The notes beneath the pieces were generated by a model, which was not told the origin of the DNA, searched no databases, and worked only from the letters and a program-made list of their open reading frames with translations. A stretch of DNA of 64,000 nucleotides from Mobula hypostoma (lineage: Eukaryota): positions 130,140,001 through 130,204,000 of the forward strand of contig NC_086097.1 in assembly GCF_963921235.1 (NCBI RefSeq), written 5' to 3'. This document shows, in pieces, positions 12,132 through 54,394 of the stretch. Every line of letters begins with the position of its first letter. The first letter of the stretch is position 1. The position numbers and the translations under genes are program-made.

Positions 12132-12169
12132 CAGTCCTGACGAAGGGTTCTGGTCCGAAGCGTCGACTG
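12132..12169 (+). ncRNA. Hammerhead motif, degenerate (GAAA>GAAG), in a Penelope 3'-end fragment (about 12080-12260)
   Basis: cagtc-CTGACGA-agggttctggtcc-GAAG-c-GTC-gactg; perfect 5-bp stem I cagtc/gactg. Confidence 0.6.
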
Positions 12170-15100: not shown

Positions 15101-15918
15101 AAAGAGATGGTGGCCATAGAAGGTGTGTATTTGGGTGTTGCTGTAAAAGAAAGCCACTCACGCACACAATAATATTATCTTTTCCCATGTTGATAGTATG
15201 CCAATCTCTAGCATCCGTGACCTTGAGCTCTTTCAAAACTCTCTCCAACCTTCTTCCAAGCATGCACATTGGATCATCCAACCCAACGCTCCCTGACCTA
15301 GACTGTCCACAAAAAACTGGCACCCAGAACTACAATCCTCCAATCACTCCATGCTCCTCCAATCCTTGCCTCTTATACACTCTCTCCATTGACCTCAATT
15401 CCTGGCTAGGTCTAGAGATCTGGAATTCCTTCCTTTCCTTCAAGATCACCCTTTAAGAAACTGACTTAGTGACCAAGGTGTTAGCCAGTCTTCCAAATAT
15501 CCTTCTCTTTGGTTTGGCTTCAACCTCTCTCTCACTGCTCTCCTGTGAAGTGCTTTGGATGGTTTCCTCTTGCTAAAGGCATTACAGACAACACCTTTTT
15601 TTGCTAGTTTGCAAACATTAACCAGTGAAATAAGTGATGGGAACAGATGGCACATCTTTAGACACACAAACCCATGGTAAAAATCTAAAGCATTAGGATA
15701 GGAATGAAATTAATTCCCAGAGCTTGCAGCCTACACAAATGTGGAGCCACTTCACATAACAAGGTGCAGTACTGAGCCAAAACAGCAAGCAGTCCATTAC
15801 CTAACACTATTAAATATGAGAAGAGAGAGGCCCACCCCAACACAGTGTTTAAAAAAACCAATCCTCATTCCTCCTCAATAAACATGAAGCTCAACAAGGC
15901 AGACGACAGTGCACTTAC

Positions 15919-18688: not shown

Positions 18689-18855
18689 CCCTCTTCTTCA
18701 CTGGCACATCTTTAGATCCTGGTGGAGCATTGATATCACCAGTTCCTTGAAAATAGGTGTATTTTTTAACTAATATTAAGTTTGGTGCAAATTTCCAGAC
18801 GTCTTCCCGATCATCAATGATGCAAACCATCGAGTCACCACAAGGAAAAAGATTC
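18689..18855 (-). CDS. CTDP1: CTDP1 exon 7 (NLFPCGDSMVCIIDDREDVWKFAPNLILVKKYTYFQGTGDINAPPGSKDVPVKKR)
   Basis: 167 nt; acceptor ...tttag, donor GTGAG; IIDD HAD motif IV. Confidence 0.97.
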
Positions 18856-21399: not shown

Positions 21400-21490
21400 C
21401 GTAGATTGCCAGTTTTAGAATATGGATCAATGCACTCATCTCTTGATAAAATTCGATGGGAAAAAAGTTTCTTCTCTGGATCCAGAAACC
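21400..21490 (-). CDS. CTDP1: CTDP1 exon 6 (GFLDPEKKLFSHRILSRDECIDPYSKTGNLR)
   Basis: 91 nt; acceptor ...ctgcag, donor GTGAG; frame continuous with exons 5 and 7. Confidence 0.96.
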
Positions 21491-24122: not shown

Positions 24123-24247
24123 AGATAGCAACACACACAAAATGCTGAAACGTCGACTGTGTTTTTTTCCATAGATGTTGCCTGGCCTGCTGAGTTCCTC
24201 CAGCATTTTGTGTGTTGCTCAGATTTCCAGTATCTGCAGGTTTTCTA
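24123..24247. mobile_element. Short Penelope-derived foldback insertion inside a CR1
   Basis: agcaacacacacaaaatgctg...cagcattttgtgtgttgct inverted ends, half hammerhead gaaacgtcgactg; TSD TCAAAC(G/A)TT at 24114-24122 and 24248-24256. Confidence 0.75.
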
Positions 24248-24829
24248 TCAAACATTGCATACTCGCTTTTATATTCCAGTCTTCCTGAAATAAATCCCAA
24301 CATTGCGTTTGCCTTCCTTACCATAGACTCGGCCTGCAAATTAACCTTTAGGGAATCCTGCACAAAAACTCCCACATCCCTTTGCACCTGTTTTTTTTTT
24401 TAAATATTTTCTCTCCATTTAGAAAATACTCAAAACTTTTCATTTATTCTACCATACACTTCCAGGCACAGTATTCCATCTCCCATTTCTTTACCCGTCT
24501 CCTAATTTGTCTAATGCCTTCTGCAGCATCTCTACTTCCTCAAAACTACCTGCCCCTCCAGTCATCTTCATCTCGTCTGCAAACTTTGCAACAAAGCCAA
24601 CAATTCCATCATCCAACAGCCAACCAGAAAAGGCTCCCTTCATTCTCACTCTTCGCGTCCTGTCAACCAACCACTGCTTTATCCATGCTAGAATCTTTCC
24701 TGTAATACCAGGGGCTCATAGCAGCCTCATGTGTGGCACTTGTCAAAGGCCTTCTGAAAATCCAAGTACTCGATGTTAACCAATTCTCTAGCTATCCTGC
24801 TTGTTGTTTCTTCCAAGAATTCCAATAGA

Positions 24830-26571
24830 CGCCTGCCTGTTTGTTGGCTACATGGAATAGTCTAAGTTCCAAGCCTACACTGGTGACCATCCCGCACTTT
24901 TCCTACGCTACATCAACGACTTTATTGCTGCTGCTTCCTGCTCCCAAGCTGAACTTGTCGACTTCATCCACTTTGCCTCTAACTTCCACCCTGCCCCCAA
25001 ATTCACCTGGTCCATTTCTGACACCTCCCTTCCCTTTCTTGATCTTACTGTCTCTATCTCTGGATCCAGCTTATCCACTGATGTCTATTACAAACCTACA
25101 GAGTCTCACAGCTGCTGGGACTATACGTCATCTCACCCTGCAACTAGTAAAACTGCCATCCCCTTCTCAATTCCTCAGTTTCTGCTGCATCTGTTCGCAG
25201 GATGAGGCTTTTCATTCCAGAACGAAGGAGGTATCCTCCTTCCAGCACCATCATCGCCGCCCTCAACCGCATCTCTTCCATTTTGCACACATCAGCTCTT
25301 ACCCCATCCTCATGCCACCCTACCTGGGACACGGCTCCTCTTGCCCTCACCTACCACCCCATCAGCATCCATGCCCAGCACATAATTCTGCAAAACTTCC
25401 ATCACCTCCAATGGGATCCCACCATCAAGCATTGGATCAGCAAGTTTGCTGATGATACAAAGATTGGAGGTGTAGTAGACAGTGAGGAAGGTTTTCAGAG
25501 CCTTCAGAGGGACTTGAACCAGCTGGAAAAATGGGCTGAAAAATGGCAGATGGAGTTTAATACTGACAAGTGAGGTATTGCACGTTGGAAGGACAAACCA
25601 AGGTAGAACATACAGGGTTAATGGTAAGGCACTGAGGAGTGCAGTGGAACAGAGGGATCTGGGAATACAGATACAAAATTCCCTAAAAGTGGCGTCACAG
25701 GTAGATAGGGTCGTAAAGAGAGCTTTTGGTACATTGGCCTTTATTAATCGAAGTATTGAGTATAAGAGCTGGAATGTTATGATGAGGTTGTATAAGGCAT
25801 TGGTGAGGCCGAATCTGGAGTATTGTGTTCAGTTTTGGTCACCAAATTACAGGAAGGATATAAATAAGGTTGAAAGAGTGCAGAGAAGGTTTACAAGGAT
25901 GTTGCCGGGACTTGAGAAACTCAGTTACAGAGAAAGGTTGAATAGGTTAGGACTTTATTCCCTGGAGCGTAGAAGAATGAGGGGAGATTTGATAGAGGTA
26001 TATAAAATTATGATGGGTATAGATAGAGTGAATGCAAGCAGGCTTTTTCCACTGAGGCAAGGGGAGAAAAAAACCAGAGGACATGGGTTAAGGGTGAGGG
26101 GGGAAAAGTTTAAAGGGAACATTAGTGGGGGCTTCTTCACACCGAGAGTGGTGGGAGTATGGAATGAGCTGCCAGACGAGGTGGTAAATGCGGGTTCTTT
26201 TTTAACATTTTAGAATAAATTGGACAGATACATGGATGGGAGGTGTATGGAGGGATATGGTCCGTGTGCAGGTCAGTGAGACTAGGCAGAAAATGGTTCG
26301 GCACAGCCAAGAAGGGCCAAAGGGCCTGTTTCTGTGCTGTAGTTTCTATGGTTCTATCTTTCTCTCCCCCCACCCCCCACCACTTTCTGCTTTCTGCAAG
26401 GATCAATCCCTACACAATTCCCTTGTCCATTCATCTCTCCCCACTGATCTCTCTCCTGGCACTTATCCTTGCAAGCAGAACAAGTGCTACACCTGTCCCT
26501 ACACCACCTCTCTCACTACTATTAAGGGCCCTAAACAGTCCTTCCAGGTGAGGCAACACTTCGCCTGTGAG
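24830..26571 (+). mobile_element. Penelope-like RT fragment interrupted by a CR1 insertion
   Basis: Visibly homologous to the 39860-41660 element in the opposite orientation (gcctgcctgtttgttggctac ... tccttccaggtgaggcaacacttc); split by the CR1 at 25432-26357. Confidence 0.82.
25432..26357 (+). mobile_element. Young 5'-truncated CR1 LINE 3' end
   Basis: ISKFADDTKIGG...LQRDL...WQMEFN then, after one frameshift, an open 211-aa RT C-terminus (LYKALVRPNLEYCVQFWSP...RRRMRGDLIEVYKI); tail ttctatggttctat. Confidence 0.92.
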
Positions 26572-27830
26572 CGTCTTCCAGTTGAAGACTGATGCGAAAT
26601 ACTTATTCAGTTTGTCCATCATTTCCCTGTCACTCATTACCACCTCTCCAGCATCGCTTTCCAGCAAGCCAATATCCACTCTCACCTCTCTTTAACACTA
26701 TGTATCTGAAGAAACTTTTGGTATCCTCTTTAATGTTATTGGCCAGCTTATTTTTGTGTTCCAGTTCTACCTTCTTAATGACTTTTTAAAAATTGTCATC
26801 CATTGGTTTTTTAAAGCTTCAGCATCCTCTAACTTCTAATTTTTGCTCTATTATATGCCCTCTCTGTCTTATATGTTGGCTTTGACTTCTCTTGTTACAG
26901 TTGTGTCATCTTGCCTTCAGAATATTTTTTTCCTCTTTGGGATATATATCTCCTTTGCCTTCCAAATTGCTTCCAGAAATTCCAGCCATTGCTACTCTGC
27001 CGTCATCCCTGCCAGTGTTCTTTTCCAATCAATTCTGGCCAACTCCTCTCTCATGTCTCTGCACTTCCCTCTACTCCACTGTAATACCAATACACTTAAC
27101 TTTAGCTTCTCTTTCTCAAATTTCAGGGTGATTTCGATCATATCATGATCACTTGCCCCTGAGGGTTTTTTTTTTAAACGTTAAGGTCACAAATCAATTC
27201 TGGTTTGGTGCATAACACCCAATCCAGAATAGCTGATCCTCTCGTGGGCTCCACCACGACCTGCTCTGAAAAGCCATCTCATAGGCATTCCGGAAATTTC
27301 TCCTCCTGGAATCCAGCACCAATCTGATTTTCCCAATCTATATTGAAATCCCCCATGACTACTGTAGTATTGCCCTTTTGGTATGCATTTACTTTCTCCT
27401 GTTGTAATTTGTAGACCACATCCTTCCTACTGCTTGCGGGTCTGTATACATCCCCCTTCTGGGTCTTTTTACCCTAGCATTTCCTTAGCTCTATCAACAG
27501 AGGTTCAACACCTTCTGACTCTCGTCACCTCTTTCTAATGATTTGATTTCTACGTTCTAGGGAATAAAGTTGTAAGCTATTCAATCTTTCCTTTTAACTT
27601 TGGTCTTCTAGTCTTGGCAATACCTTTGTAAATTTTCTTTGTACTCTTTCAAGCTTATTTATATCTTTCCACTAGATAGGTAACCAAAACTGCACACAAA
27701 ATTCCAAATTAGGCCTCACCAACATCTTACACAACTTCAACGTGACATCCCATCTCCTATACTCGAAACTTTGATTTATGAAGGCCAAAGTGCCTAAAGC
27801 TTCCCACATGACCCTATCTACCTGTGTCAC

Positions 27831-28441
27831 TGATAAAGTTTAAGGGAATGGGGGATTCTCAGATTCCTGTAAACAATGGATTCAGTACTGACTATGTCTG
27901 TGACTGCAGTGTGTTTGAATAATGTTTCACAGCTGCTTTCTTTGGAGCAAGATAAGGGTTAAAGTTCACCCAGATCCACATAAGATGTCTCTGGGCTTTT
28001 CACACCTTTTGATTTTGACAAAAAGCAGTTGGAAATTAGACAGAACATTCCTTTCTTAATTCAAGCATAAATTTGACAGATGTTCTTATCTTTGTAATTA
28101 AGTTTGTGGCTCCAGCAAACCAGGTAGGACATTCTTTTCTTTAATTAAGGTGGCTGGAGTGTCTAACAAATTGATTGTTCTCTGTATCAACAGTCCATTG
28201 ACTTGACCGGAATGGTCATCAAACTAATTGTTCTTTTGTATCGGTAGCCTTATAACTTCTGTCAATTCTGACACTGGGCAGTGAACTTGTAGAACTACCA
28301 GGGAGATGAGAAAGGGTCTCTCCCTGATGTCAGGTCCAAGTTCACTCACTGGCTGAGCTTGAAGAAATAAATGGGTGAAAAGATAAGTAACGATCTTTTT
28401 GTGCTGTCGTTATTTGATCCAGCAAAGTTACGTTTCCATCA
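27831..28441 (+). mobile_element. Solo LTR (611 bp) inserted in a CR1
   Basis: TGAT...ATCA termini, 4-bp flanks TCAC/CCAC, TATAA at 28251 and AATAAA at 28366; the host CR1 resumes seamlessly on both sides. Confidence 0.78.
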
Positions 28442-30814
28442 CCACTTTCAATGAATTATGGACCTGTATCCCAAATCCCCTTGTTGTACCACAGTCCTCA
28501 GTACCCTACTGCTCACTGTATACCTACCCTGGTTGATCCTCCCAAAGTAAAACACCTCACACTTGTCTACATTAAATGCCATCTTCCATTTAACTCACAA
28601 TTTTTCCAGCTGGTCCAGATCTTTCTGCAAGCTCTACTAGTTTTCCTTGCTGTCCATTACACCCGCAATCTTGGTGTATTAACCACATTATCCTCCAGAT
28701 CATTGATATAGGAGACAAACAAAAAACCCAGTACCAATCCCTGTGGCAAAGGCCTCCAGCCAGGGAAGCAAACATCTACTACCACTCTTTGGCTCCCCCA
28801 CAAAGCCAATGGCTTACCCAATTTACTACCTCACCTTGAATGCCAAGCAGCTGAATCTTCATGACCAAGCTCCCGTGCAGGACCTTGGCAAAGGCCTTAC
28901 TAAATCCACGTAGATAACATCCACTGCCTTGCCTTCATCAACTTTCCTACAGACTTTCTTGAAGAACTCTATAAATGTCATTAGCCATGCTCTACCACAC
29001 ACAAAACCATGCTGACTATCCCTAATCAGTCCTTGTCTATGAAAATACTTATATATCCGGTCCCTTGGAATACCTTCTCATAACTTTCCCACTGCTGATG
29101 TTAGGCTCACTGGCCTATAATTTCTTGGTTTATTCTTAAGAGCCTTTCTTAAACAGCAGAAAAACATCAGCTATCCTCCATTCAGCTCCTATGTCAATGG
29201 TCTTACAAATATTCTAAGAGAAGAAACTTCTTCTCATCTCTCTGCCTTGGTTGTAAAGATCCTATCCAGCAGCTACAAATTCCCATGCATTAACATATCA
29301 GATAGGCCCCAGCATACAGATGCAGTCACAAGGAAGATGCACCAGGCTCATTACTTCTTTTTTTAAATAGAAAGTCAAGGTGATTTGACATGTCACTGAG
29401 CACTCAAAAGTTCAAACGTTTGAAGGAAATTTATTATCAAAGTAGGCATACATGTCACTATATACTACCTTGAAGATTTGTTTTCTTGCAGACCTTTTAC
29501 AGGAAAACAAAATCCAGCAGAATTACGAAAAACTAGAAACAACGAAGACTGAAACAACCAAAGTGCAAAAGAAGACAAATCATGCAAATAAGTAGTAAAT
29601 ACACAAAGAATAAATAATACTAACAAATACAAATGTACTGTTCAAAGTATCCTGACTGGTTGCATCATCGTTTGATACAGCAATTCAAATGCACAGGAGT
29701 ACCAGAGGCTGTACAGAGTAGTGGACTCAGCACTGTGACATCCCTCCCTATTATCAGTGAGGGACCAAATTCAAGAACAACTACTTCCTTCAACTGTCTG
29801 CTTCTCGAACCAACCAGCACAACTCTGATCACCACCTCAGCATAGCAACGTTAGGATCATTTTGCACTACAATGGACTTCAGTTTCTTTTGTTCTAATTT
29901 TGTTTTATGTTGTATAATTTATATACAGTTTATGTTTTTCTTGTGAATGTTATGTATCTGATGCTATGTGCCTGTGACGCTGCTGCAAATTTCACATTGC
30001 ATCTGTGCATACATGCACTTGTGCAAATGTCAACTGACCCAACTTTGATATGTCAGCCTGGATTTAACTTCCCCAGGTGCTGCCTGATATGCTGAGTTCC
30101 TCCTGCTCAGGTGCTCCAGATCGAGCATTCAGAGTTTCTCGTCTCTTCAGCTCTGCATTTATCCTGACAAGCCTGTTAAGAATTTTGTACATTTCAGTGA
30201 GATCACTTCTCATTCTTCTAAACCCAAGACAGCTAGGCCCATTTTGCATAATCTTGCCTCAGTCAAACTCATCTCAGAAATCATCCTGGTGAACCTTCAC
30301 TGCTGTCCCTCATTGTAGGGATATCCTTCCTTGGGTAGAGAGACCAGACATGTTCACAATATTTCAAATGGTGCTCACTAGATTTCAATATCAAATCAGT
30401 GAGGTGAATTCATTCTTGTGCTCAAATCATCATATAATAAATTCCCACATACAGTCCTCATTGTTTCTGGTATCTGTTTGTTAACATTCACTGATTGTGT
30501 ACAAGGACATCCAGCTATGCAAAGATACAAACCCAAACAGCTTCAAGGAAGATATTAAGCACTTTCCATACATCAAAGAGGCAGAGATTTTAAAATGTTA
30601 ACTATTATTACATAATGCTGAAGATGACTGTCAAATGAGTCCAAATGACAAATTGTTACTTAGCTCATGATAATTTGACAATTGAAAACTTTAAATGTCT
30701 TAGAATTAAGCAGCAATGCATCTCATTTCATTTGCCTCTGCATACAGGATAATGAGGAGAAATTAAATGTATACAATTTTCCTACAGATTGAAGACAAAA
30801 TAATAAAGATAAAC

Positions 30815-31237
30815 TGTGACGAAGGCCCGTCACTAACTACGGACAGCACATGGTGCACTCGGTGAAACACTCATCCCCAGCAGTAATAGTGACTGGGTCT
30901 GAACCAGAGCTGCTGCATGGAGCTGTCTCATATAGAGACAGCAGCAACCTGCACAGGTGTGCATTGGTGGAGGATACCATCTTTAATTGGATAATTGAGT
31001 TAATTTGCTTTTGGCTGGTCAGGGGGAGGGGCTTAGCAGTTATAAGCCTCAGGTTACCAAGGCTTTGGGGTTAGTTTTCTTTTGTGTTTAGTCTAAAGGT
31101 GGCTATATATATTTATTGTTTTTTTTCCCCCAGTTTTTGTCTTGTTTTGAGGTAAATAAAAGCACCTCAATCTATTTTTGCGACTCAAGCCATCTGGTTA
31201 TTTTTCTTAAACAAATGACCCACAGTTTTTTGTGACA
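30815..31237 (+). mobile_element. Probable solo LTR (423 bp)
   Basis: TGT...ACA termini, 5-bp flanks TAAAC/CAAAC, TATATAT near 31104 and AATAAA at 31155. Confidence 0.55.
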
Positions 31238-34200
31238 CAAACCCAATACAGATGCCAGAAGTGTGTGGCGTAAATAGAAAATGTTGGAAATCTTCAGCAG
31301 ACCACAACAGCACCTATTTCAAGATTTTGACCTTATCAGAACCCCGAAATATTGCAGGCATAATGTGTTTTTAAGGAACAAATGATTCAGGGAGGGGAAG
31401 AAAGAACAAAAAGAAAGACCTTGTGTAATGAGGAAATGAAAAAACAAATTAATGAACAGCAGAATTATTCCTAGCATTTGCTAGTAATCATCATCACAAA
31501 GGCAAAATGTTCATCCAACCATGAAAATGTTTTGACATCTCCCTGTGTAATATCTGTTCCTCAGTGTGGGCTGGGTCACAACTCAGATGTGATTGCATTC
31601 ATTTTGGGTGGGAGGGTGAGTTCTTGGATGGCAATGTTACACTGAAAGTTACCACAAACTTAGACAAAAAAAAATCTGGATATTTTACATACACAGTAAA
31701 ATTTCTGTTGCAATACGATTCACAGTGACTACACAACCAATTTTCTCAGCAACTCACATGGGTTCTTGCAGAGAACCATCAAACTGCCTTGGGTTGCACA
31801 AAAACCATCGTTAACTATTTACCAAACAAATGCTTTTAGATAGCTGAATTCACGAAGCTACTCCAAAATCAGAGCATCTGCTGCCTGCAACTCTTTCCAT
31901 AGCAGAATCGTTAGATTGATTTGCAATAGATCACTGAGGTTTAAAAATGAACTGTAACTTGACTGGTTGATTAAATTTTTAATCTCCCCTCCATGAACCT
32001 ACCTCCAGTATACTAAATTGTTCCTTAAGACCTATGATTCCAACCAGCTCATAGCCACCTGCTCCAGTGTCTCCTTGTGACAACGTATGACCTATAGGTG
32101 TTTGGGGAAAACAATGACTGACGACAATTTGAACACAACCTCCCCATCACGCCCCCAGGATACAAGCAGAGAAATAGGCTCTTTGCCACAATGATTATCA
32201 ACCACGCATATGCAAGAAACACAAGAGACTGCAGATGCTGGAAGCTGGAGCAACGAATGCACCACTGGAGTAATTAGCACTAATTCTATATTAATCCCAA
32301 TTTTATTCTCCCCACATTATCAAGTCCATCTACAACCCCTCCCTGATTCTGTCACTCACCTAAAACTTACAATTCCAAGTAACTTACCAAACCACACACC
32401 TTTTGGATGTGGTAGGACACCAGAGCACCTCAAGGAAAACGCAGTCATTAGGATTGCAAGCAATCTCCAGGCAGACAGCAGGATTGAACCATGTCACTGG
32501 AGTGTGAGACAGAACTTTGCTGTAAGAGCCATGCATCTGTCATGCAGCCAAATATGACAGTACCAGAGGTATCATGTAAATGAAAGTTGTTATTGACACT
32601 ATCTGCACTAAGCAAGGTATCTGCACTACCTGCACAGGCAACAGATGGAGAACAATTGAGTAAGTAAACTCAGGTGACAGTGGTACCAATGAGTTCAGAT
32701 CCAAATCAACTAAACAGATTAGTTGTCCATTCTCACTTATTTCATTATGACACAGGAGAGTTGAAACTGAATTGACTTTATTTCTTACATCCTTCACATA
32801 CATGAGGAGTAAAAATCTTTGTTACGTCTCCATCTAAATGTGCCATGTGCAATCATAGTAATTTATAATTTATAATAAATAGAACAGTCAATGTAATATA
32901 GAGTACATTCAAATCAGCGTGAGTTCCATCAGCGAAGACTATTTGGTTCTTCAATTCTATAACATCTCTGAGCCTTACCATTCTCCTACTTGACTCCCAT
33001 AACTTATTTTCTCTCACATTGCTCTCAACTGCCCCAAATTCTCTTGCCTCCCCCTTCCTACACTAGATTAAATTTACTGCAGCCAGTTAATCTACCAGGG
33101 TGCGGGAGAAAACTGCTATAAGTACATGAACTTACAAGAACATACAAACTCCAAACAGACTGCACAGAGGACAGGATCAAACCTGGGTCACTGGAGCCGT
33201 GAAGTAGTAGCACAAACAGCAGCATCATCACAATATCCATCGATTAACTGTTACCTGCACAAACTTGCTGGGAGTAACTGACAAAAAGGCTTCTCACTTT
33301 AAACCAACGAAAAGACCCAAAGTAGTACCTTGACAGTTAAAGAACATTTGGGCAATCCTTGGTTGTGAAAGAGGCAACAGAAATAGAAGTCTTTTGTTGT
33401 GGTGTTCAGCTTTGTAAATATGTTCCCATCTCTATGAAGCTTAACACTTTAATTACCATCACTACTCGGAACTTAATCTCAAAGGTGGATCACTATCCAA
33501 AATGAAACTTCCTTGGAAAAATTGGAAATATTCAAATAGAAAAAGAAGGACATGCCCTTCCAAGAGAGTTTCAATTTACTTTTAAGTAAAACTAATTTTG
33601 TCAAGGGATGAAACAGCACAGTTCTGCACATTCTAGAGGTAATGGGGTTAAAATGTATCACAGGTTGCCTCTATAACTTTGTGATGTCAGTTGTAAGGCC
33701 ACTCAACACCTGATGTCTCATCTGCCACTGAATTAGATCATGCTACTATACCTTCGATCAATCCCAATCCCATAATCTTTAATAATCTTGGCTTTAATAA
33801 TTCGGTTGTGATGTTTTCAAACTAAGAGGTTTCATTAAAGTTTACAAATTTTCTTCAGTTATTTGTTAAGGAATTTGTTCTCCAAAGTGAATCAGTCTTG
33901 AAGGGTAGCCTTGACAAAAGCTTGGTGGGCCAAAATGTTATCATTTTACTAAAATCTAACAATTCGTCACCAGGTAGGAGTCTCTATTCTGAACCAGGAG
34001 TCCAAAGTGATGCATGCTTCAGAATGAAAGTCACCCTCCGGGCTCCGCAACTAACGTCGATGGTTTAGGGCCAGATGCTGTCTTGTATGGAAGTGGAACG
34101 GTACGAATGAGAATTGCCACAGTTCCTAGACATGACTATAGGCCAGTAAATTAAGTGACCACACAAAGACATCCTCCCCAATGTGAGAATTTCCAAACTT

Positions 34201-35190
34201 ATCACTTCATGTAAAGCAACTAAATGAAAATTTACTATTGGGTGCTGCTATTAAGAACAGATAATGAAATGCTTCACAATTCTACACCAAATTCTAACCT
34301 TGCAGACATAAGAGATTGCCGATGTTATCATGTGAAGCAACACACAAAAAGCTGGAGGAAATCAGTAGGTCAGGCAGTATATAACAGTTATTTCCCCTCT
34401 ATCTTTCAGACCAATGAAGGGTCTCAACCAAAAATAAAACACTGATTGCACATTTCTCCCCTTAGATGCCATGTGACCCTTTGAGTTTCTCTAGCTTTTC
34501 GGGTTCCAACACTGATCTCTATATTTAACCAGACTCCTTTGGATGAACTTAAATGTTACAAGTTCACTTCCAAACAAGGGAAACAACTGGAACCTGTGTA
34601 ACACAACAGGACACGTTCCATTAGTATCACACACAACAAAATCTTGTGTTTACACACAAAGGTGTCCCAATTCTCAGAGGCAAATGGCAACAGATCCACC
34701 CCCTCTCCCACCATCCTCACACTATATTGAACACTAGCTAAAATCGGCACAAACAGTAGTATCGGCTCAAGCCCCACTCAAGGTTATAAGGGTCAAGGAG
34801 GGAGCATCATTGGGCCTTACCATTGGACAGGACCTGAAGAGAGCAGTGGCCAAACTGGGTATGTGAGAGGTCGTGACACACAAGAGATTGCAAATACTGG
34901 AATCTCAAGCAACAAAAAGCTACAGGCAGCATCCGAGGAGGAAAATGGACATTAAAGACCCTTCACCTGGACTGAAAGAGTAGAGGAATTCCCCTTCTAA
35001 TCTGGTCTGGCCAATGTGACCCCCTACCCGCTGACCCTTGATCGACTTCCAAAATTTAATTCAGGTGGTAACCAGTGGTGGACAATGTCTCGCCTGCAAC
35101 ATCCTGTTAACAAATCAGTTGTTTTAAATATTACCAAATTTTGACGCTACTCGAGAAGTTAGAAGCTGCTGTCTACTTTTTTCTACATAC

Positions 35191-35341
35191 CTGCAATGGT
35201 GTGTGCGTACAGTCTGCTCCCGAAGGTGAACACATGTAGCTCGTAGAGTTTTGCTATTTTTTCTAGAAACTCTTTACAGTGCGGTCTCAGGCGTGTATGC
35301 AGCATTGGCTCTCCTCTGCCTAGCTGGAAGTGAAAAATTCC
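35191..35341 (-). CDS. CTDP1: CTDP1 exon 5 (GIFHFQLGRGEPMLHTRLRPHCKEFLEKIAKLYELHVFTFGSRLYAHTIA)
   Basis: 151 nt; acceptor ...ttgcag, donor GTATG; FCP1 homology domain sequence. Confidence 0.97.
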
Positions 35342-36777
35342 CTGCAAGCAATAACAGAAAACAGCACAATTAAATTCTAAACGAACAGACATGTCCACAA
35401 TCAATTTTTAGATCGCGTGTAAACTGCAAACACCAAATCACGGATCACATGCACCATAAAACCAACCATTGCCCACTAAACAACTCATAAGACTGGGCAA
35501 AAGGTGTGTTCTGCACTGGCCACACAGCTTCTGACTAACTGGATATTCATGAAAGGGCTTGCCAAGGGACTTACAGATCAGACTTAATACTGGGTACAAA
35601 ACAGCTTTAAGGAGACACTATAATTAACTGTCAGTGTTGTAATGTATGACACACAGTAGTGTATTTGTGCTCAGTAAGCTCTCACCAACTGATCACAATA
35701 ATGGCCAGGGATTGCTCTGTTGATTGTGGCCAAGACGCACATTTCTACTCTTTGCCAAAATAGTGCCTTAGGGTCCAAGGTATTTCTCCACAAGAGCAGA
35801 AGGGTCTTCAGTTTCACATATCAGCTATGAGCTGACATTCCCAACAATGCAGCATTCCCTCAGTACCACAACGCCTGTCAGTCTGTGCTGAAACCTCCAG
35901 CTATTCACCGACTGAGAGAACAAAGTGCTAATAATTGGATCACAGCCAATGCCATTGCTGGATCTGGCGCTTTTGATCCAGAGGCTCTTCAGAAGTCCAG
36001 AATGAGGCATAACATTGGTGGTTACAGCCACTTTATTAAGTATCAAGAAAAAGCTGTAGTCATCTCATACCCAGACTAGAAATAAACAACATCCCAGTGA
36101 AAACAACTAACCTAAGTGATGTGACATCTGCTGCAAAAAAGCTGAGAAGCTTCTGGAAAACTATAAAATCATCAATACAATTTCTGGAACATTTACTGAA
36201 CAATTACACATAGGTATATATTAAAATCATAAACTAGCATAGGAAAGTTAAACAACAAGGAAAATAACTATTCTACACCTTATTCCAACTTTGCTTTGTT
36301 ACTAACCCCAAACAAAGGTATTCTTCCACCTTTTCTAAACCAGTGACTGGTCAGCAAACTTCTAATCACTTCCCTTGGCATGATTTTACAGCGGTCAATG
36401 ACTTCTGTCAGCATTTCCCACATTATTCCTAAACCCCTCAGCAAGATTTCTGCTTTAAAAATGTGCCCTGCCTGTTAGATCACAACTTCAGTATCAATAC
36501 AAAACAGCAGGACTATTTGCAATTACCTGAGAGCATTAGACAGAGTACAAACAGCCAAGATGGAGAATAAACCAAGCTGCTGGAAGTACTCAGCAGATCC
36601 TGATGAAGCGTCTTCACCTGAAATGTTGACCATCCATTTCCAGCCTGTGTCCGGCACATAATTCTCTGAAACTTCTGCCACCTCCAACGGGATCCCACCA
36701 CATCTTTCCCTCCCCTCCCCCTTTATTCACCATTCCTTTATTCTTCCTGGGTTTATGTACACTCAGAAAGAACTCAC

Positions 36778-36906
36778 CTTGTTGGACATTTTCTGGCACA
36801 GCTGCTCTGTTGTATGGATTAAGGTCTGATCCAGATCCACCATCAACACTAGCTTCCGGTTCTTATGTAGCCACTGCTGATCCTCTCGACCCAATTGCTC
36901 AGCTTG
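36778..36906 (-). CDS. CTDP1: CTDP1 exon 4, catalytic DxDxT motif (QAEQLGREDQQWLHKNRKLVLMVDLDQTLIHTTEQLCQKMSNK)
   Basis: 129 nt; acceptor ...ctcacag, donor GTGAG; DLDQT is the FCP1 active-site signature. Confidence 0.97.
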
Positions 36907-37206
36907 CTGTGAGGTAGAGGTGATAAGGCGGGGCAGGGGGTGGTGGGGGTGTAAAACAAAGATCTTTTTAAAAATCTATACCCATGTTAATGTAACATGT
37001 ACAGAGAAACAACTTTGCAGCACAATAAAACGCCTTTCAATCTCCATATCTATGACTGACTTTGCTCTCTATATAAGCCTCCTCCAATTCTAACATCGGA
37101 ATATTTTTCTATTCTTTTCTCTCTCTGTTAAAAGTCCCTGGTAAATGCCTCAACTAAATGACACCCATATTCTCACTATTTTCTGGGCAAAGAACTTCCC
37201 TTAGAG

Positions 37207-37286
37207 CAGAGGTTCCCAACCTGGGGTCCATGCACCCCTTGCTTAACAGTATTGGCCCATGACATAAAATAGTTGGGGAACCCCTG
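37207..37286. mobile_element. 80-bp hAT MITE
   Basis: TIRs cagaggttcccaac / gttggggaacccctg; degenerate 8-bp flanks CCTTAGAG/CTCTAGGG. Confidence 0.7.
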
Positions 37287-39104
37287 CTCTAGGGTTTTTG
37301 ACTTAACAGCAATTGTCTTAAACTTACGCCCACATGTTTTGGACACCCTATAACTGGACATATTTTCTCTGGTTTGTCCAATTCAATACATAACGGGCAC
37401 ACCTCTCCTCACATTAGCAATATCTACAGGAGGTACTGCATCAAGGTGGGAACAGCTATCAAAGATCCCCACCATCTTCTTGCAGGTACCATTGGATGTT
37501 GGACAGAAGCCTGAAGTCCCACACTACCATGTTCAAGAACAGCTACTTCCCTTCAACTATTCAGTTCTTCAACCAACTAGCACAACCCTAATCACTACAA
37601 CACTATGACCACTTTGATTACTTGGAACTACAATGGATTTTTTTTTGCTCTAATTGTGTTCTTGTAAAAATGGGTTAATTTTGTTTAATTTATGTTTTTC
37701 TTGTGAATGCTGATTATATGATGCTATGCACCCGTGATGCTGCTGCAAGTAAGATTTTCATCGCATCTGTGCATACATGCATTTATGCATACGACAATAA
37801 ATTCAACTATTAAACTCAACTATTGACTATTCAATCTCTTTATACATTTAACAGGCATTTCCTGAGAAATGAGGAGATTCAGTGTTCCAAGAGAGTTTTG
37901 CCATCAGTCTTCCACATCAACCTTTTTCTGCTCTTTGAATTACAGAAAAAAGGCACTGTGCAGAATGAGGCCATTCGATACACTAGTCTGAGACAGACCC
38001 ATACTTCCTCCTTCGAGCAGGAGTGTGGCATTGTGTAATCCATAAACACTCCAGTGATTGCCGAGCACTTGAGAATGTCAGAAGGAGCAGTAATGTGTAG
38101 CACAACTATCCTGTCCAACTCCCTTCACCATATATATCAACGTGGTACATTGTGAAGTAGTACACAGATCACTGCAACAATGGAATGGCTTAAAACAGAT
38201 CAACTCTAACCGAACAGGAATATATTTCATGGCTGGTATGAAATATGGAAGACCTTAAGGGCAAAATAAGCCAAGTGCTGTTGGAAAAAGAATCAGGATA
38301 GGTTACTCAATGATTTCAATCCATCCTACAGTTTAATCTTTATCTTGACATCAATTGATATCCACAACCATGCAAGTCTAACGGTTTCAAAATTCCTATT
38401 AAATCCGGCATATCAAATAGCTGGTTGTTGTCTTCTACTCTCACCTCTGGGGGAATCAAAGTGCTTTCTGATTCACTCTAAACGGCACATCTTTCATTTT
38501 AAGGTGGTGAGTTCTTACGCTTTATTTCACACTACTGCGGCATAATCAATAGGAACACAACATTTGTTTTACAGCCTAGCTTCATAACATAACCTGTTAA
38601 GCACCAGGCATTGTTTCCAACAAATCTGTCTGTGGAAGGATGCAAAAGAGAAAGGAGCAGAAATGAAAACACTGCCAGAAACTCTGCAGCAGTGAATACA
38701 AAAATTGAGCAAGACTCTCAAAAGGATTGAAGGAAATACAGCAAGGAATAAATTACGCTGGGAACGATGCAGGGAAGATATTTTTATTTGCAAATTACTT
38801 GGATAAATAAACATGCCAATTATTGCAATCTCAAACGTCAACTGGAACAGAGAGCCTCAATGCTGTGCAATTACCAAGCGACAGCACCACCTACTGATAA
38901 TAGGTCAGGTACTCATGACAGTGCCACCTACTGGAGTAGGGAACAGAAACAAGAAATTCATAGAAAGGAGATTAATTTGAAGACTGTTCTAAAAAGACAC
39001 CAGCAAGAGCGACGGCAGTAGGAGATAAACTAAAAAGAGAGATCAAGAAAGGCAAGACAGTGATATAGAACAGAAACACTGTACTTTAATTCCACTGGAC
39101 TCAC

Positions 39105-39198
39105 CTCAGAGCTCACCATCAATTCTGGAACACTGTGAACCATGGAAACTGTTGCTGTGGCTACTGGTGCTGTTTGCTTCCCATTCTTCTTCTGTAAT
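39105..39198 (-). CDS. CTDP1: CTDP1 exon 3 (LQKKNGKQTAPVATATVSMVHSVPELMVSSE)
   Basis: 94 nt; acceptor ...cttcag, donor GTGAG; phase joins exon 2 (CA+A = Gln). Confidence 0.95.
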
Positions 39199-39859
39199 CT
39201 GAAGACAAGAATGCAAAATGAAGGACGAATTGCCATCCAAGCATCCGAGGAGGAAGCTGCTGTCTGCCACAATATTCTCAGACCTCCTTAACAATGCTTC
39301 CACTAATGAATTCAGTAACCATTTTATTGGATACATCCAGAGAGAAAGAGGAAAGTGGCATTAAAGCAGATATTATTGCCATCTTAAAATGGTGTATCTG
39401 CTCTACAGCTTCCCCTCCTATCTTTCTTCATCTCATTGCATCATAAACTCTTACTTTCCCTCCCTCAAGTGCTTTTACTGCTTCAGTTAAGTGCATCTCC
39501 ATTACTTGCCTCACTCATTCCTGATAACCAGTTCCACATTCTAGTCATGCTTTGGGCAAAGAAATTTCTTCCAAATGCTTCATTAGCGAGTACAGTTAAT
39601 GTGCACAGTTCTGGCCTCCTTATTGTACCAGCAAAAGATAGTAGTCTAAGGGAGGTCCATTAGGCTAATTCCTCAGACAAAAGCTTCCCTCCCACAAGCA
39701 AGTGAAGTTACATCTACAATACATTTTTTGAAGTCTGAAGGGTGATCTTTTTGAAATAATACAAAGATTCTAAAGGGGCCATGACAGTAGATGTTGAGAT
39801 ATTTCCACTAGTGGGAGAATTTCAAGATTGGGAGATGAGTAGTAGTTATAGAGAACCAC

Positions 39860-41660
39860 GTACAATGTGCCGGAGGAGTTCAGCAGATCAGGCAGCTTTT
39901 ATGGATGAGAATAAACAGACGATGTTTCGGGCCGAGACCCTTCATCAAGACTGGAAAAGGAGAGGGAAGAAGACAGAATAAGAAGGTGAAGGAGGGGACG
40001 AAGTAGTACAAGGTTGCAGGTGATAGGTGGAACCAGTAGGGGAGGAGGGGGTGAAGTAAAGGGCTGGGAAGTTGATTGGTGAAGAGATAAAGGGCTGGAG
40101 AAGGAGGAATCTAATAGCAGAGGACAGGACACCATAGAAGAAAGGGAAGAAGGGAGTAGCACAAGAGGGAGGTGAAGGGCAGGTAAGAAGTTGTGACAGG
40201 GAAACAAGAATAGGGAACGGTGAAGGGGGAAAGGGGGCAATAACAAGTAGTTTAAGAAATCAATGTTCATGCCATCAGGTTGGAAGCTACCCAGGTGTTG
40301 CTCCTCCAGCTGGAGTGTGGCTTCATTGTGGCAGTAGAGGAGGCCATGAACTGGAATGTCAGAATGGGAATGGGAAGTGGAATTAAAATTGGTAGCCACC
40401 AGGAAATCACACTTTTTGTGGGGAGTAGAGTGAAGGTGCTCGACGAAGCAGTCTCCTAATCTACGCCGTATCTCACTGATATACAGAAAGCCACACCGTG
40501 AGCACCGGATACAGTAGATTATCCCAACAGACTCACGGTGAAGTGTCACCTCACCTGGAAGGACTGTTAGGGGCCCTGAATGGTACTGAGGGAGGTGATA
40601 TAGGGACAGGTGTGGCACTTGCTCCACTTGCAATGACAAGTACTAGGAGGAAGATCAGTGGGGAGGGACATGTCGACAAGGGAGTTGCGTAGGGAGCCAT
40701 CCCTACTTCGTGGTGGGATCCCGATGGAGATGGCGGAAGTTAGGATAATTATGTGCTAGATGCGGAGGCCTGTGGGGTGGTAGGTGAGGGGAGAGGAACC
40801 TTACCCCTGATGTGGCAGCAGGAGGATGGGGTGAGGGCACAGAAGAGTGCAAAATGGAAGAGATGTGGGTGAGGGCAGTGCTGATGGTGAGGAAGGGAAG
40901 CCTCTTTCCTCGAAGGTGGAGGACATCTCAGTTGTTCTGGAATGAAAGTCTCATTCTGAGAATAGATGCGGCAGAGACAGAGGAACTGAGAAAAGGGAAT
41001 GGCATTTTTGCGAGTGACAGGGTGGAACAGGTATAGTCAAGATGGCTGTGGGAGTCAGTGGGTTCATAAAAGATACCAGGAGATAGACCGTCTCCAGAGA
41101 TGGAGACAGACAGATCAAGAAAGGAGAGAGTGGTGTCAAAAATGGACCAAGTAAATTTGAGAGCAGGATGGAAGTTAGAGGCAAAGTTGGTAAAATTGAC
41201 AAGCTCAGCATGGATGCAGGAAGCAGCACCAATGTACTCACCAATGTAGCATACGATTTGGGGAGCAATGTCAGTGTGGTCTTGGAACATAGACTGTTCC
41301 AGGTAATCAATGAAAAGGCAGGCATAGCTGGGACCCACACGAGTGCCCGTGGCTACACCCTGGGTTTGAAGGAAGTGGGAGGAGCCGAAGGAGAAAATAT
41401 TGAGGATGAGGACCAGTTCCGATAGATGGAGGAGAGTGATGGTGGAGGGGAACCGGTTGGGTCTGCTGTCCAGGAAGAAGCAGAGAGCTTCCCCTGATAG
41501 GGGATAGTGGTGTATAGAGACTGCACATCCATAGCGAAAACAATCCAATCAGGGCCAGAGAACTTAAAGTCATTGAAGAGATCAAGAGTGCGTGAAGTGT
41601 CATAGATATAGGCAGGATGGGACTGAACCAAGGGGGATAAAATAGAGTCAAGGTGTATAG
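39860..41660 (-). mobile_element. Penelope-like retroelement, 5'-truncated and frameshifted (RT + GIY-YIG endonuclease + 3' repeat with hammerhead)
   Basis: Minus-strand ORF pieces MDVQSLYT, QTQGVATGTRVGPSYACLF and LSFLDLSV (Penelope RT), and GIIYCIRCSRCGFLYISE...RRLGDCFVEH (GIY-YIG), followed by a hammerhead-like motif at 39916-39953. Confidence 0.88.
39916..39953 (-). ncRNA. Hammerhead motif, degenerate (CUGAUGA>UUGAUGA), at the 3' end of the Penelope element
   Basis: Minus strand cagtc-TTGATGA-agggtctcggccc-GAAA-c-ATC-gtctg. Confidence 0.6.
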
Positions 41661-42414
41661 GAATTTATTTTTATAGAGCATGGTTAATCTCTGCAATTTT
41701 CTACTCCAGAATGGTTGTGGAGGCTCTGTTGACCTCTCTGGGTGTATTTAAGACAGCAAATATATACTGTTTTGAAATATTGAGGAATTGGCAAAGGAAA
41801 GATGATGTCGAGAGGATATCAGCCACGATCATACTAATGATAGGCCAGGTTTAAGGAACCATTTGGCCTACTCCTGCTTCTCTTTCCTTGTGTTCTTAAC
41901 CTCATACACAGGTGATCTCCAATACTGGCCTCTGAACAGAAACGTCATAACCACACCCTTGTTATCAACCCCTTCCATTATCAGAAATGCCTCTCAGCTT
42001 CCCCCTTTCTAAAGAATATAGCTCCATCCTTTGTCTCTCCTGACAGTGTGAACCTCCTTTAAAGTCATTTCTGCACTCCCTACTGTTCCAATGTCCTTTC
42101 TGTAAATGGGAGACAGATTCAGCACAACTGAAACTACAGAAAAAGCTCAATGATCTGGACCTAAAGCTATAGGAACTCAACAGGTCTGGCAGCAATCTAC
42201 TGTGAGAAATAGACGTCAACATTTTAGTGCGCATTCAGCTTGTACCATTCATTTCAAGCCAAGGGACATCATAAGGACAATGAGACAGGCTAAAACAAAG
42301 ACGGAATTAATTAGGATTTGGGACTGTTGACCTCTCTGGGGTGGGGAGAGTGAAGGATAAGAAAGCAAAGTGAAGAACCATGGAACAACTGTTTACCCAA
42401 TTTACCCAAGAAAA

Positions 42415-44117
42415 CGCTGGATGAACTGAATCAATATTTTGGACCAGCCATCACTGTGGAAGACACTAGCAGTATGCCGGAAGTTCGAGTGTCAGGGGGC
42501 AAAAGTAAGTGAAGTTGCCATTACTAGGGAGAAGCTACTTGGGAAACTGAAAGGTCTGAAAATAGATAAGTCACCTGGAGCTGAAGGTGTACAACCCAGG
42601 GTTCTGAAGGAGAAGGAGGCTGAAGAAATTGTGGAGGCATTAGTAATGATCATTCAAGAATCAATAAAGTCTGGCATGGTTTTGGAGGACTTGAAAATTG
42701 CAAATGTCACTCCACTCTTCAAGAAGGAAGACAAGCAGGAAAAAAAAATTATAGGCCAGTTAGTCTGACCTCAGTGGTTGGGAAGAAGTTGGAGACAATT
42801 GCTAAGAGTATGGTTTCGAGGTATTTGGATTCACGTGACAAAATAGGCCACAGTCAGTATGGTTTCCTTAACGGAAAAATTTGCCTTACAAATATCTTGG
42901 AATTCTTTGAACAAGCAGGATAGACAAAGGAGAATCAATGGATGTTGTATACTTTGATTTTCAGAAGGCCTTTAACAAGGTGCCATGCATGAGGCTGCTT
43001 AACAAGTTAAGAGCTCATGGCTCTTAACTTGACAAGAAAGATACTAGCATGGATAGAGCATTGGCTGATCGGCAGGAGGCAAAAAGTGGGAACAAAGGAA
43101 GCCTTCTGGTTGGCTGCCGGTTACAAGAGGAGTTCCGCAGGGTTCGGTGTTGGAACTGTTTCCATTTAAGTCATAGGTCAATGATTTGGATGACGGAATT
43201 GATGGCTTTGTGGCTAAGTCTGCAGATGATACGAAAATAGGTAGAAGCACAGGTACTTTTGAGTAAGCGGAGGGGCTACAGAAGGACTTAGACAGATTAG
43301 GTGAATGGGCAAAGGAGAAAGGTCAAGAAATGGCAGATGGAATGCAGTGTCGAGAAGTGTATGGTCATGCATTTTGGTAGAAGAAATGAAAGTGTATATT
43401 ATTTTCCAAATGGAGAGAAAATTCAAAAATCAGAGGTGCAAAAGGACTTGGGGGTCTTAATGCAGGATTCCCTAAAGGTTAATTTGCAGGTTGAGTCAAT
43501 GGTGAGGAAGGCAAATGCAATGTTCGCATTCATTTCAACTGGAGTAAAATATACAAGCAAGGATGTAACGTTGAGGCTTTATAAGACACGGGTGAGTGCT
43601 CACCTGGAATACTGTGAGCAGTTTTGGGCCCCTCATCTGAGAAAGGATGTGCTGACACTGGAGGGGGTTCAAAGGAGGTTCAGGAAATGATTGAAAGACT
43701 TATCATATGAAGAGCGTTTGATGGCTCTGGCCCTGTACTCACTGGAATGCAGAAGAATGAGGGGGGAATCTCATTGAAACTTACTGAATGTTGAAAGGCC
43801 TCAACAGAGTGGATGGTAGGGAAGTCAAGACCAGAGGACACAGCCTCAGAATAGAGGGATAGCCATTTAGAACAGAGATGAGGAGGAAATTCTTCAGCCA
43901 GAGTGGTTAATCTGTGGAACTCATTACCACAGGCAGCTGTGGAGGCCAAGTTATTTGGTATACCCGAGGCAGAGATTGATAGACTCTTGATTAGTCAGGA
44001 CACAAAGCAATACGGGGATTGGGGCCGAGAGTGAAATGCTTCAGCCATGATGAAATGGCGGAACAGACTCAATGGGCTAGATGGCCTAATTCTGCTCCTA
44101 TATCATACGGTCTTATG
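42415..44117 (+). mobile_element. Decayed CR1 LINE RT region
   Basis: KSPGAEGVQPRVLKE...KIANVTPLFKK; WQMECSVEKCMVMHFG...HLEYCEQFWAP; 3' tail ggcctaattctgctcctat. Confidence 0.88.
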
Positions 44118-44369
44118 TTCAACCTCGTCGATCATGGACATGTGGCTCTCCTTACCTATGCTGCAGATTCCTTATCTGCCAAGGAATTCATTACTCAAGA
44201 GCAAGTGAAGCCTCCAACTGAAGAGAAACAATTACATTTTGGTGAAGCATTCATTAGGTTGAGGCAATTCCACACCACCAGCTTATTCTACAAACACTCT
44301 GCTTCAGATCTCACTGCAGGATGCATTTTATAACAAAGATTGGTGGAGGCAAGGATGGAAAGAACTTAC

Positions 44370-44453
44370 TGCGTCAAGTCTTGGCCACACGCTGCACAGA
44401 GACCTTTCATAATGACTGGATGATTGCATCCTTCTAGTCGCAGTAGTACAGCT
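44370..44453 (-). CDS. CTDP1: CTDP1 exon 2 (AVLLRLEGCNHPVIMKGLCAACGQDLTQ)
   Basis: 84 nt; acceptor ...tttgcag, donor GTAAG; contains the conserved C-x-H...GLC-x-x-CG motif. Not in the ORF track, read by hand. Confidence 0.95.
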
Positions 44454-49730: not shown

Positions 49731-49892
49731 CAGATAAGGGCAAGTTCCTTCATTCAATCTTTGCGATTCCCTACCCCAATTGGGCTGTGTAGGCTTAGTC
49801 AATGAGCCTTTAAAAATCAAGATTGATTAAGTTACACACATAAAAGACGCTGGCGAACGCAGCAGGCCAGGCGGCATCTCTAGGAAGAGGTA

Positions 49893-49930
49893 CAGTCGAC
49901 GTTTCGTGCCGAGACCCTTCGTCAGGACTA
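49893..49930 (-). ncRNA. Minimal type I hammerhead ribozyme motif (one stem II mismatch)
   Basis: Minus strand tagtc-CTGACGA-agggtctcggcac-GAAA-c-GTC-gactg, within a Penelope-end fragment at about 49830-49950. Confidence 0.68.
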
Positions 49931-50149
49931 ACTGAAAGAAGAGCTGTCTTTTTTCTCCCCCCAAGAAAAGGGCATCAGTGAATATGAAGAGCACAGGAAA
50001 AACGGTAAAGATACAAGATCATTCTGAAAAATGATCTGAAAAGCCCAACTCCTGCTCCTAATTTTAGTGTTCTTAAGGATTTTTTTTCTAAGAAGGATCC
50101 TTTACACAAAATTACAAGAGACAGGATTCAAACCTAGATCTGCAGCATT

Positions 50150-52000: not shown

Positions 52001-52109
52001 AACTGGCCTCACAATCCACCTTCAGACCTTTCACTTTATCATTTACCTACACTGCTCTTTACACTTCATTTTGCATTGTTCTACCTCATTCTAGCTCAAT
52101 GTACTGAGT

Positions 52110-52357
52110 CAAACATGAGAAATTCTACAGATGCTGGAAATTCATGCAACACACATCAAAGTTGCTGGTGAATGCAGCAGGCCAGGCAGCATCTCTAGGA
52201 GGAGCTACAGTCGACGTTTCGGGCCGAGACCCTTCATCAGGACATTTTTCAACGTTTTGGGCCGAGACCCTTCGTCAGGACTGGCCCGAAACGTCGACTG
52301 CACCTCTTCCTAGAGATGCTGCCTGGCCTGCTGCATTCACCAGCAACTTTGATCAAG
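52110..52357. mobile_element. Short foldback Penelope-derived insertion with tandem hammerheads
   Basis: About 71-bp inverted arms 52155-52225 and 52283-52353; 9-bp TSD GTACTGAGT at 52101-52109 and 52358-52366. Confidence 0.85.
52208..52243 (-). ncRNA. Minimal type I hammerhead ribozyme motif, core intact
   Basis: Minus strand reads gtc-CTGATGA-a-gggt(ctcg)gccc-GAAA-c-GTC-gac: catalytic core, stem II, palindromic ACGT in place of stem III, GUC cleavage triplet and stem I gtc/gac. Confidence 0.75.
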
Positions 52358-52559
52358 GTACTGAGTAACGATTTGATCTGTGTAAATAGTGTACAAGTTT
52401 TTCCACTCTATCTTAGTACATGTGACAATAATTAATACTAAAAGAATGTGTTTTGTTTAAGGCAGATAGCAAGCAACTTCACCCCACAGCAGAGGTGTTT
52501 AAAACTCTAGGGCACAGACTAAAGGCAATTTTTTGAGTTTTAGAGGGGATCTGAAGAGG

Positions 52560-53870: not shown

Positions 53871-54100
53871 AAACTGTACATGGACACGGCAGGCTACGTG
53901 TAACTAGATGCTGTTAAAATGTTCGGAGTTCACGACACAAGATAGTTTTGGAAGCTCAGTCAGTATATCCTCAGAAGAAATTGGGACATTTCTGAATATG
54001 GGATATAGGATTAATGCAGGAAAAGCAGAATGAAAGCACAGTCAGCCATGATTTCATTGAATGGAACAAGCACATGGGGCCGAACTCCTACTTCCATTTA

Positions 54101-54240
54101 AAAACGCAAACACGAGCAATTCTGCAGATGCTGGAAATTCAAGCAACACACATCAAAGTTGCTGGTGAACGCAGCAGGCCAGGCAGCATCTCTAGGATGC
54201 TGCCTGGCCTGCTGCGTTCACCAGCAACTTTGATGTGTGT
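54101..54240. mobile_element. Short foldback Penelope-derived insertion with perfect 46-bp hairpin
   Basis: Arms 54145-54190 and 54196-54241 are exact reverse complements with a TCTAG loop; 15-bp TSD TCCTACTTC(C/T)ATTTA at 54086-54100 and 54241-54255. Confidence 0.88.
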
Positions 54241-54394
54241 TCCTACTTCTATTTAGACCTTATATTAGGTAGGCCTCAATTTTTGGCTCTGCATCAGGTA
54301 TCCTCTTAAAACTTGTTACAATTATGCAACTAAATGTACTAGCCAACAAAAATTCTTCTATTCTCCTTCCTCCCAGCACTTTTTTGCTCTAAAC

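Follow-up and report, generated by a model that had tools for sequence, protein, structure and literature searches.

Gene context and anatomy of the insertion

The window analysed here is a stretch of 64,000 nucleotides from Mobula hypostoma, and its host gene is CTDP1. A large minus-strand frame is 100% identical to the M. hypostoma CTDP1 protein (P0001), and seven coding exons of this protein (aa108-719) map to 44452..15917 on the minus strand. The most upstream coding exon in the window (aa108-135; 44369..44452, minus strand) is located 7.7 kb from the element described below (52110-52353). The element is therefore found upstream of the first mapped CTDP1 exon, and its hammerhead motifs are present in CTDP1 sense. 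For aa1-105, no placement was obtained in the 64-kb window. The initial annotation had placed the motifs in sense within CTDP1 intron 1; the minus-strand exons bear out the sense orientation, while intron 1 is an assignment that fits, as aa1-105 lie outside the window.

The element is 244 bp long and is flanked by a target-site duplication (TSD) of 13 bp with one mismatch (52097..52109 on the left and 52354..52366 on the right, both on the plus strand), which increases to 14 bp if the T at the end of the arm is counted. Flanking repeats of this type occur by chance at 2 of 20000 random positions. The TSD that had been noted before is thus real, but its 9 bp only represent the last part of the left repeat. 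The longer repeat absorbs four bases after the arm and, as a consequence, the insertion covers 52110-52353 and not 248 bp as initially proposed.

The left end of the element is formed by a pLTR 3' tail of approx. 39 nt (52110..52148, minus strand), followed by the primary arm, which consists of the pLTR body and the 3' half of the first hammerhead motif, HHR-A (52155..52225, minus strand). The right end is an inverted, 5'-truncated pLTR copy in head-to-head orientation (52283..52353, plus strand), which begins within stem II and is devoid of a tail. The inverted arms had been estimated at about 71 bp, and the comparison of 52155-52225 with 52283-52353 indeed gives 71 nt with 96% complementarity and differences at 3 of 71 positions. 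HHR-A and a duplicated hammerhead unit, HHR-B, are separated by a T-rich spacer of 5-8 nt (52244..52250, plus strand) that has no in-register match to pLTR copies (0 of 5 bases at 52244-52248) and is likely untemplated. The tail is found only on the left arm of the element and is shared with a copy at 54107 (94.5% over 91 nt). Sequence comparison revealed no tail in the inverted arm or in a copy at 49834, and the tail length corresponds to the distance that separates the 52110 terminus from the inner end that is used by the inverted arm of the 54k copy and by the 49.8k copy. Within the pre-mRNA, the near-perfect 71-bp duplex of 52155-52353 (minus strand) would probably be a substrate for ADAR or for endo-siRNA formation.

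Both junctions of the element occur once each in the 64-kb window at ≤4 mismatches, and their one-off nature refers to this window and to the joints listed. A paralogue spanning the empty site was not detected in the window, where the flanks match separate pieces of an older repeat, and an empty allele was not seen among the contigs of the sequencing runs. The 3' part of this older repeat (51620-52109 and 52367-52440) serves as target site; pieces of the flank match 3327-3444, 58339-58386 and 18036-18076, and the joint 52101>52399, which is among the joints listed, is derived from other copies. In run X1, which may be the source sample, difference-free contigs enter the element by 24-30 bases from each flank and at flank depth. 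The bridging rule for contigs is 31 letters, and the slightly shorter X1 crossings therefore provide a strong hint against an assembly artefact, with no counted bridge. Run X5 represents organism B, which shows 7 differences in 348 bases. Here, a full-depth right-flank contig enters the arm by 27 bases, again below the 31-letter rule, and the left-hand contig ends at 52109 with four unaligned letters. The right-flank contig gives a hint of an insertion older than the split from organism B.

A Penelope-like family and its foldback copies

Judged by its sequence, the element is the pLTR of a very abundant, endonuclease-bearing Penelope-like element (PLE). A profile derived from four window slices retrieved 25 matches at 20 loci in the 64 kb and 0 matches on the reversed window. 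In run X1, the summed contig depth, which does not equal copy number, was 2-11 million in the element and 34-44 in clean flank bins. The element itself contains no ORF and its own subfamily (copies of 89-95%) adjoins no ORF in the window; the connection to PLEs runs via a relative with 74% identity. This relative belongs to a broken, longer Penelope-like copy at 39853..41664 (minus strand), which comprises RT and GIY-YIG frames, a pyrimidine-rich 3' region and a hammerhead-bearing pLTR. The pLTR is located approx. 250 nt behind the broken RT and endonuclease frame and matches the 52110-52353 element with 74% over 89 nt (E 2.6e-12). The frame was identified by tblastn with the ray homologue P0121 (E 3e-77) and is also matched by P0126 and P0128.

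Pfam searches with eight frames of the window gave no RT or GIY-YIG match because these frames are broken, and the class was reached via homologues instead. P0126 and P0128 are full-length relatives, in which RVT_1 is above the cut-off, while GIY-YIG is above the cut-off in P0126 and just under it in P0128. P0121 contains YIDD, a CX2-5CxxC motif (position 236) and GIY-CxxC-YIG; the CX2-5CxxC linker is also present in the window fragment 26266-26571, and GIY-YIG clusters (51% and 22% of members) are also indicated by the Atlas. The definitions used here for endonuclease-bearing PLEs are those given in the available sections of PMC8557442, which describe this linker as common to Neptune, Nematis and Naiad, and Penelope and Poseidon as being without it. 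Placement by the linker motif, and not by an RT tree, points to a PLE of the Neptune/Nematis type.

Two additional PLE fragments are present in the window. A separate, broken PLE endonuclease fragment at 52687-53245 (minus strand) lies 330 nt off the element, and its 3' region fades with no recognisable hammerhead. A PLE RT-endonuclease copy at 24822-26571 (plus strand) is interrupted at 25432-26370 by an insert that resembles a piece of a CR1-type LINE. In public collections, a 24-mer gave 0 matches in metagenomes, and viral contigs also gave 0 matches. A 19-mer produced 13 matches, none of which exceeded 26 nt, and these were judged to be chance matches. A literature search, mostly outside subscription journals, yielded no titles that deal with PLE hammerheads of rays or with a tandem junction of this kind.

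The long inverted repeats and the 9-bp flanking repeat could also recall a MITE or a foldback DNA transposon with a 9-bp TSD. This is hardly credible, because the repeats are non-terminal, with an offset of 45 nt for the left arm, the TSD extends to 13 bp, and the entire sequence is PLE pLTR.

A sister insertion of the same subfamily is located at 54101..54241 (minus strand; 94.5% over 91 nt). It contains no hammerhead and is flanked by a 14-bp TSD with one mismatch (54087-54100 and 54242-54255). Its terminus is nearly the same as that of the 52110 element, and it folds approx. 40 nt downstream of the hammerhead position C3. The stretch 54087-54255 contains a near-perfect 49-bp hairpin within the same intron as the 52110-52353 element. 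A second sister copy at 49834..49949 (minus strand) has neither foldback nor tail; it carries a hammerhead with all core letters (49898-49925, minus strand), which is in CTDP1 sense and has one stem II mismatch and no masking arm.

Inverted pieces above background were observed in 5 of 20 loci in each of two scans, and in 6 of 20 loci when both scans were combined. All six foldback loci are arranged head-to-head, each with its own fold point; a locus at 36.6k is borderline. In the four loci with both arms resolved, the tail is always found on one arm alone. The 20 pLTR loci show no orientation bias (8 plus, 7 minus, 5 both). Older head-to-head pLTR foldbacks are located at 17161-17363, 17687-17849, 24127-24246, 34317-34500 and 36575-36640, and three of these five fold ≤3 nt from the hammerhead 5' edge. 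The foldback is a recurring product of this pLTR family, and its layout has already been published for Penelope.

Hammerhead motifs, their decay and their predicted activity

The two head-to-tail hammerheads that had been recognised on the minus strand correspond to a 33-mer that is repeated at a spacing of 38 (52211-52243 and 52249-52281). HHR-A (52208..52243, minus strand) is a minimal type I hammerhead in which no core letter is missing (C3 at 52240, G12 at 52220 and C17 at 52213) and the layout CUGAUGA-A-stem II-GAA-ACGU-C. It displays the boxes, the bulge after position 9, the G10.1-C11.1 pair and the palindromic helix III of the minimal type I core. Helix I of HHR-A comprises 3 bp in place, which is less than the 4-5 bp of minimal hammerheads. 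HHR-B (52249..52282, minus strand) begins at the helix I 5' edge and reaches to ≤2 nt from the cleavage site. Its core is incomplete due to G12>A at 52258 and it also carries C17>U at 52251; these are the changes from GAAA to AAAA and from GUC to GUU that had been read in the second core, next to an intact first one. An inverted half copy of the hammerhead, also described before, starts at 52283. Core letters and pLTR identity support the initial assignment to the minimal type I hammerheads of PLEs.

HHR-A and HHR-B differ at 3 of 33 positions, and all three differences are CpG-type transitions. The 52110-52353 copy deviates from the majority of the contig depth at 52145, 52173, 52201 and 52205. 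The number of hammerhead copies was set to 13 of 14 rows by leaving out a mis-anchored row at 4.3k; all core letters and the palindrome are maintained in 2 of these 13, HHR-A and the 49.9k copy, which are both in CTDP1 sense. The hammerheads represent the element's own minimal motif, which decays at CpGs. Rfam, which the initial annotation had suggested as a check, left the motif undetected: nothing in the 64 kb reached the gathering score, and the five matches at E≤10 included no hammerhead family. These five, weak matches to miRNA and lncRNA families (E 0.44-3.1) far under the gathering score, were discarded as hairpin look-alikes. In an alignment of 11 copies, covariation did not exceed that of shuffled controls, of which 260 of 500 were as high for pairing and 97 of 500 for the covariation score.

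The tandem arrangement could also result from a later, local duplication at the DNA level, by slippage or hairpin-related repair, within the same insertion. Long inverted repeats are unstable in DNA, and the units differ at just 3 of 33 positions. Nevertheless, we regard a later duplication as improbable, because clean slippage would not generate a spacer that fails to match the pLTR in register. Moreover, the units are approximately as diverged as the arms (3 of 33, all at CpGs, and 3 of 71, respectively) and need not be younger.

The initial annotation had favoured a retrozyme-like, non-autonomous unit. In this reading, the Penelope machinery would copy a retrozyme- or SINE-like mini-element as one piece. 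In its favour are the TSD, the pLTR end that would be recognisable for the enzyme and the two tandem hammerheads, and animal retrozymes have been proposed to be derived from pLTRs in the available text of bioRxiv 10.64898/2026.07.22.740005. The data do not support this proposal, which we consider quite improbable: each junction is found once in 64 kb at ≤4 mismatches, the fold points differ among the sister foldbacks and only one core is complete. According to the same text, retrozymes need two consecutive complete motifs, which are not present here as HHR-B lacks G12, and the 38-nt unit is below the published consensus range of 51-972 bp. In addition, a circle that is cut between the two sites would contain neither the tail nor the arms.

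The minus-strand RNA is predicted to fold at -164.3 kcal/mol, a stability reached by 0 of 200 shuffles (z -19.6). When present alone (60 nt), HHR-A is predicted to form helices I and II with a probability of 0.73-0.97. In the full RNA, the predicted probability of helix II of HHR-A is 0.0004. Transcription of the pre-mRNA reaches the antisense arm before the hammerheads, with which this arm is predicted to pair when they emerge; accordingly, the predicted probability of this helix stays at ≤0.004 in every RNA prefix tested. The active fold is disfavoured by a calculated ddG of +17.6 kcal/mol for the monomer and +41.9 kcal/mol for the dimer in the full RNA, and by +8.4 and +14.7 kcal/mol, respectively, when the arm is removed. 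According to the established dimer model, the cores of a double hammerhead act on each other's sites. If this model applies here, core A would face site B with a helix I of 2 bp, while site A, with a helix I of 5 bp, would face the G12A core of HHR-B. Neither tertiary contacts nor proteins enter these energies; for the anole hammerhead, protein assistance is described in the available sections of PMC11167929. For minimal hammerheads, the part of PMC4209133 at hand reports no cleavage as monomers and low cleavage as dimers. Both motifs are predicted to be inactive and non-cutting, and the intact HHR-A is predicted to be masked by the arm (+17.6 kcal/mol), in line with the masking by the foldback arm that had been suggested before. 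Masking needs no functional reading, because the copy at 49898-49925 is unmasked although it has the same sense and is located in the same intron; the hammerhead fold is not predicted for this motif alone.

An intronic ribozyme or hairpin switch that has been retained by the host for regulating CTDP1 pre-mRNA would be compatible with the sense orientation, the intact core, the very stable hairpin and the hint from run X5 that a related species also has the insertion. A retained switch is nonetheless very improbable considering the CpG decay and the private substitutions of the copy, the unbiased orientation of the 20 loci, the lack of covariation above shuffles in the 11 aligned copies and the predicted inaccessibility of the active folds.

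Proposed origin and comparison with known systems

The 244-bp pLTR piece with its 13-bp repeat probably originates from one insertion with two RT template changes. According to the predictions, its hammerheads are carried along in the CTDP1 pre-mRNA as inactive passengers. An autonomous Neptune-type copy would provide the GIY-YIG endonuclease that cuts the target, and reverse transcription would be primed at the tail end (52110) and proceed over 134 nt to the hammerhead 5' edge, a presumed preferred stop. After addition of 5-8 untemplated bases, synthesis would resume close to the cleavage site, with pLTR RNA as template, and the hammerhead would be copied a second time. Joining to a pLTR piece of opposite polarity in head-to-head orientation could occur by snap-back or by second priming from the other DNA strand. 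Repair would then leave the TSD, and the copy would have decayed neutrally since. Adjacent inverted pLTRs with a 9-10 bp TSD, an optional tail and head-to-head layout are described in the accessible part of PMC3846280 and are interpreted there as self-priming; the accessible part of PMC8557442 also gives the inverted-pLTR layout with an optional tail of 30-40 bp. According to the available sections of PMC11167929, the anole PLE protein is able to cut the two strands and to extend them from two internal start sites; the ribozyme is dispensable for insertion in vitro. Priming on two strands suggests a second route, in which two primings are joined at their truncated ends, and the data fit both routes.

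The approximate start of the sense piece relative to C3 is -4 in the 52110 element, -2 at 17.3k, -3 at 17.8k and -2 at the borderline 36.6k locus; the other loci start at -20 (34.4k), +20 (24.1k) and +40 (54.1k). Fold points thus coincide with the hammerhead 5' edge in three of six clear foldbacks, or in four of seven including the borderline one. Binomial P values, determined post hoc on few loci and varying with the assumptions made, are 0.005-0.04 and 0.0006-0.008, respectively. Joints starting at 52243 were left out of this evidence, since it is at this position that the reference sequence departs from the family. The clustering suggests a discrete RNA or cDNA end at the hammerhead 5' edge. 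Most copies that keep upstream sequence have, at this edge, a pyrimidine tract with CAG as its last letters. The tract with CAG is seen at 4330-4360, 12090-12136, 13600-13650 and 39950-40000, in some cases with a TATA-like TTTATA approx. 30 nt before. By its letters, this arrangement would fit a promoter initiator, for which we assume the commonly quoted consensus, or a splice acceptor. In D. virilis, the intron ends at helix I (PMC4209133, available part) and the start site is located 46 nt upstream of this intron (PMC2377424, available part), a point in favour of a splice acceptor.

HHR-B starts at A 52282, and its templated part ends at +26 to +29, around the cleavage site at +27. This raises the unlikely idea that the duplicated unit is a genomic fossil of in vivo hammerhead cleavage, generated by transcript start, run-off and end-to-end jump. 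The PLE transcript would begin with the A in the initiator-like (T/C)CAGTC of the hammerhead 5' edge, and tail-primed reverse transcription would run off the 5' end like retroviral strong-stop DNA. An end-to-end jump with untemplated bases would then lead onto the 3' end of a start-to-cleavage fragment of 31-32 nt. If true, the hammerhead stretch would provide the terminal redundancy for jumps from 5' to 3' ends, which would build partial tandems in Penelope elements. If such tandem junctions peaked at the cleavage site genome-wide, in vivo cutting by PLE hammerheads would be testable from DNA alone. On the other hand, this junction is a single case that was noticed post hoc, and the available sections of PMC11167929 report zero anole reads ending at the cleavage site.

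The locus contains a real but ordinary decaying Penelope pLTR insertion, one of very many such scraps. As this insertion shows, introns of a housekeeping gene tolerate minimal hammerheads on the sense strand, and its value is that of a data point on Penelope integration, a process that is still poorly understood.

Several known systems resemble the ray element, and the comparisons refer to the accessible parts of the respective publications. The green anole Poseidon element PAc (Frangieh et al. 2024, PMC11167929) shares the hammerhead, the subsequent AC-rich region and the two preferred ends that define the tail. It differs from the ray family, for which sequence indicates the Neptune/Nematis-type CX2-5CxxC linker that Penelope and Poseidon do not have (PMC8557442). 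Non-LTR retrozymes (Li, Clavereau, Pollet 2026, bioRxiv 10.64898/2026.07.22.740005) are likewise pLTR-derived and non-coding and contain tandem type I units, with cleavage in one of nine dimers tested. In contrast, the ray element is a TSD-flanked foldback with two 38-nt units, one of which has an incomplete core, and its junctions were seen in one copy in the 64-kb window.

The min-HHRs of metazoan PLEs (Cervera and De la Pena 2014, PMC4209133) have the CUGANGA and GAAA boxes, the unpaired base between positions 9 and 10.1, the G10.1-C11.1 pair, the palindromic ACGU replacing helix III and the pLTR location in common with the ray element, and that study describes hammerhead pairs on opposite strands, 100-700 bp apart. 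The ray motifs deviate by a stem II of 3-4 bp, a helix I of 3 bp in HHR-A and the loss of G12 in HHR-B, and no ray element is among those in the accessible part of that study. A parallel in layout is provided by the head-to-head inverted-pLTR insertions of endonuclease-bearing PLEs (Arkhipova et al. 2013, PMC3846280; Craig et al. 2021, PMC8557442), with which the ray element shares the 5'-truncated pLTR joined to an inverted truncated copy, the outward tails with a 30-40 bp tail on one arm, and the short TSD, although this is 13 bp in the ray element and 8-10 bp in the published insertions. Different from these insertions, the ray element has no ORF between the repeats and carries an extra 38-nt hammerhead duplication at the junction.
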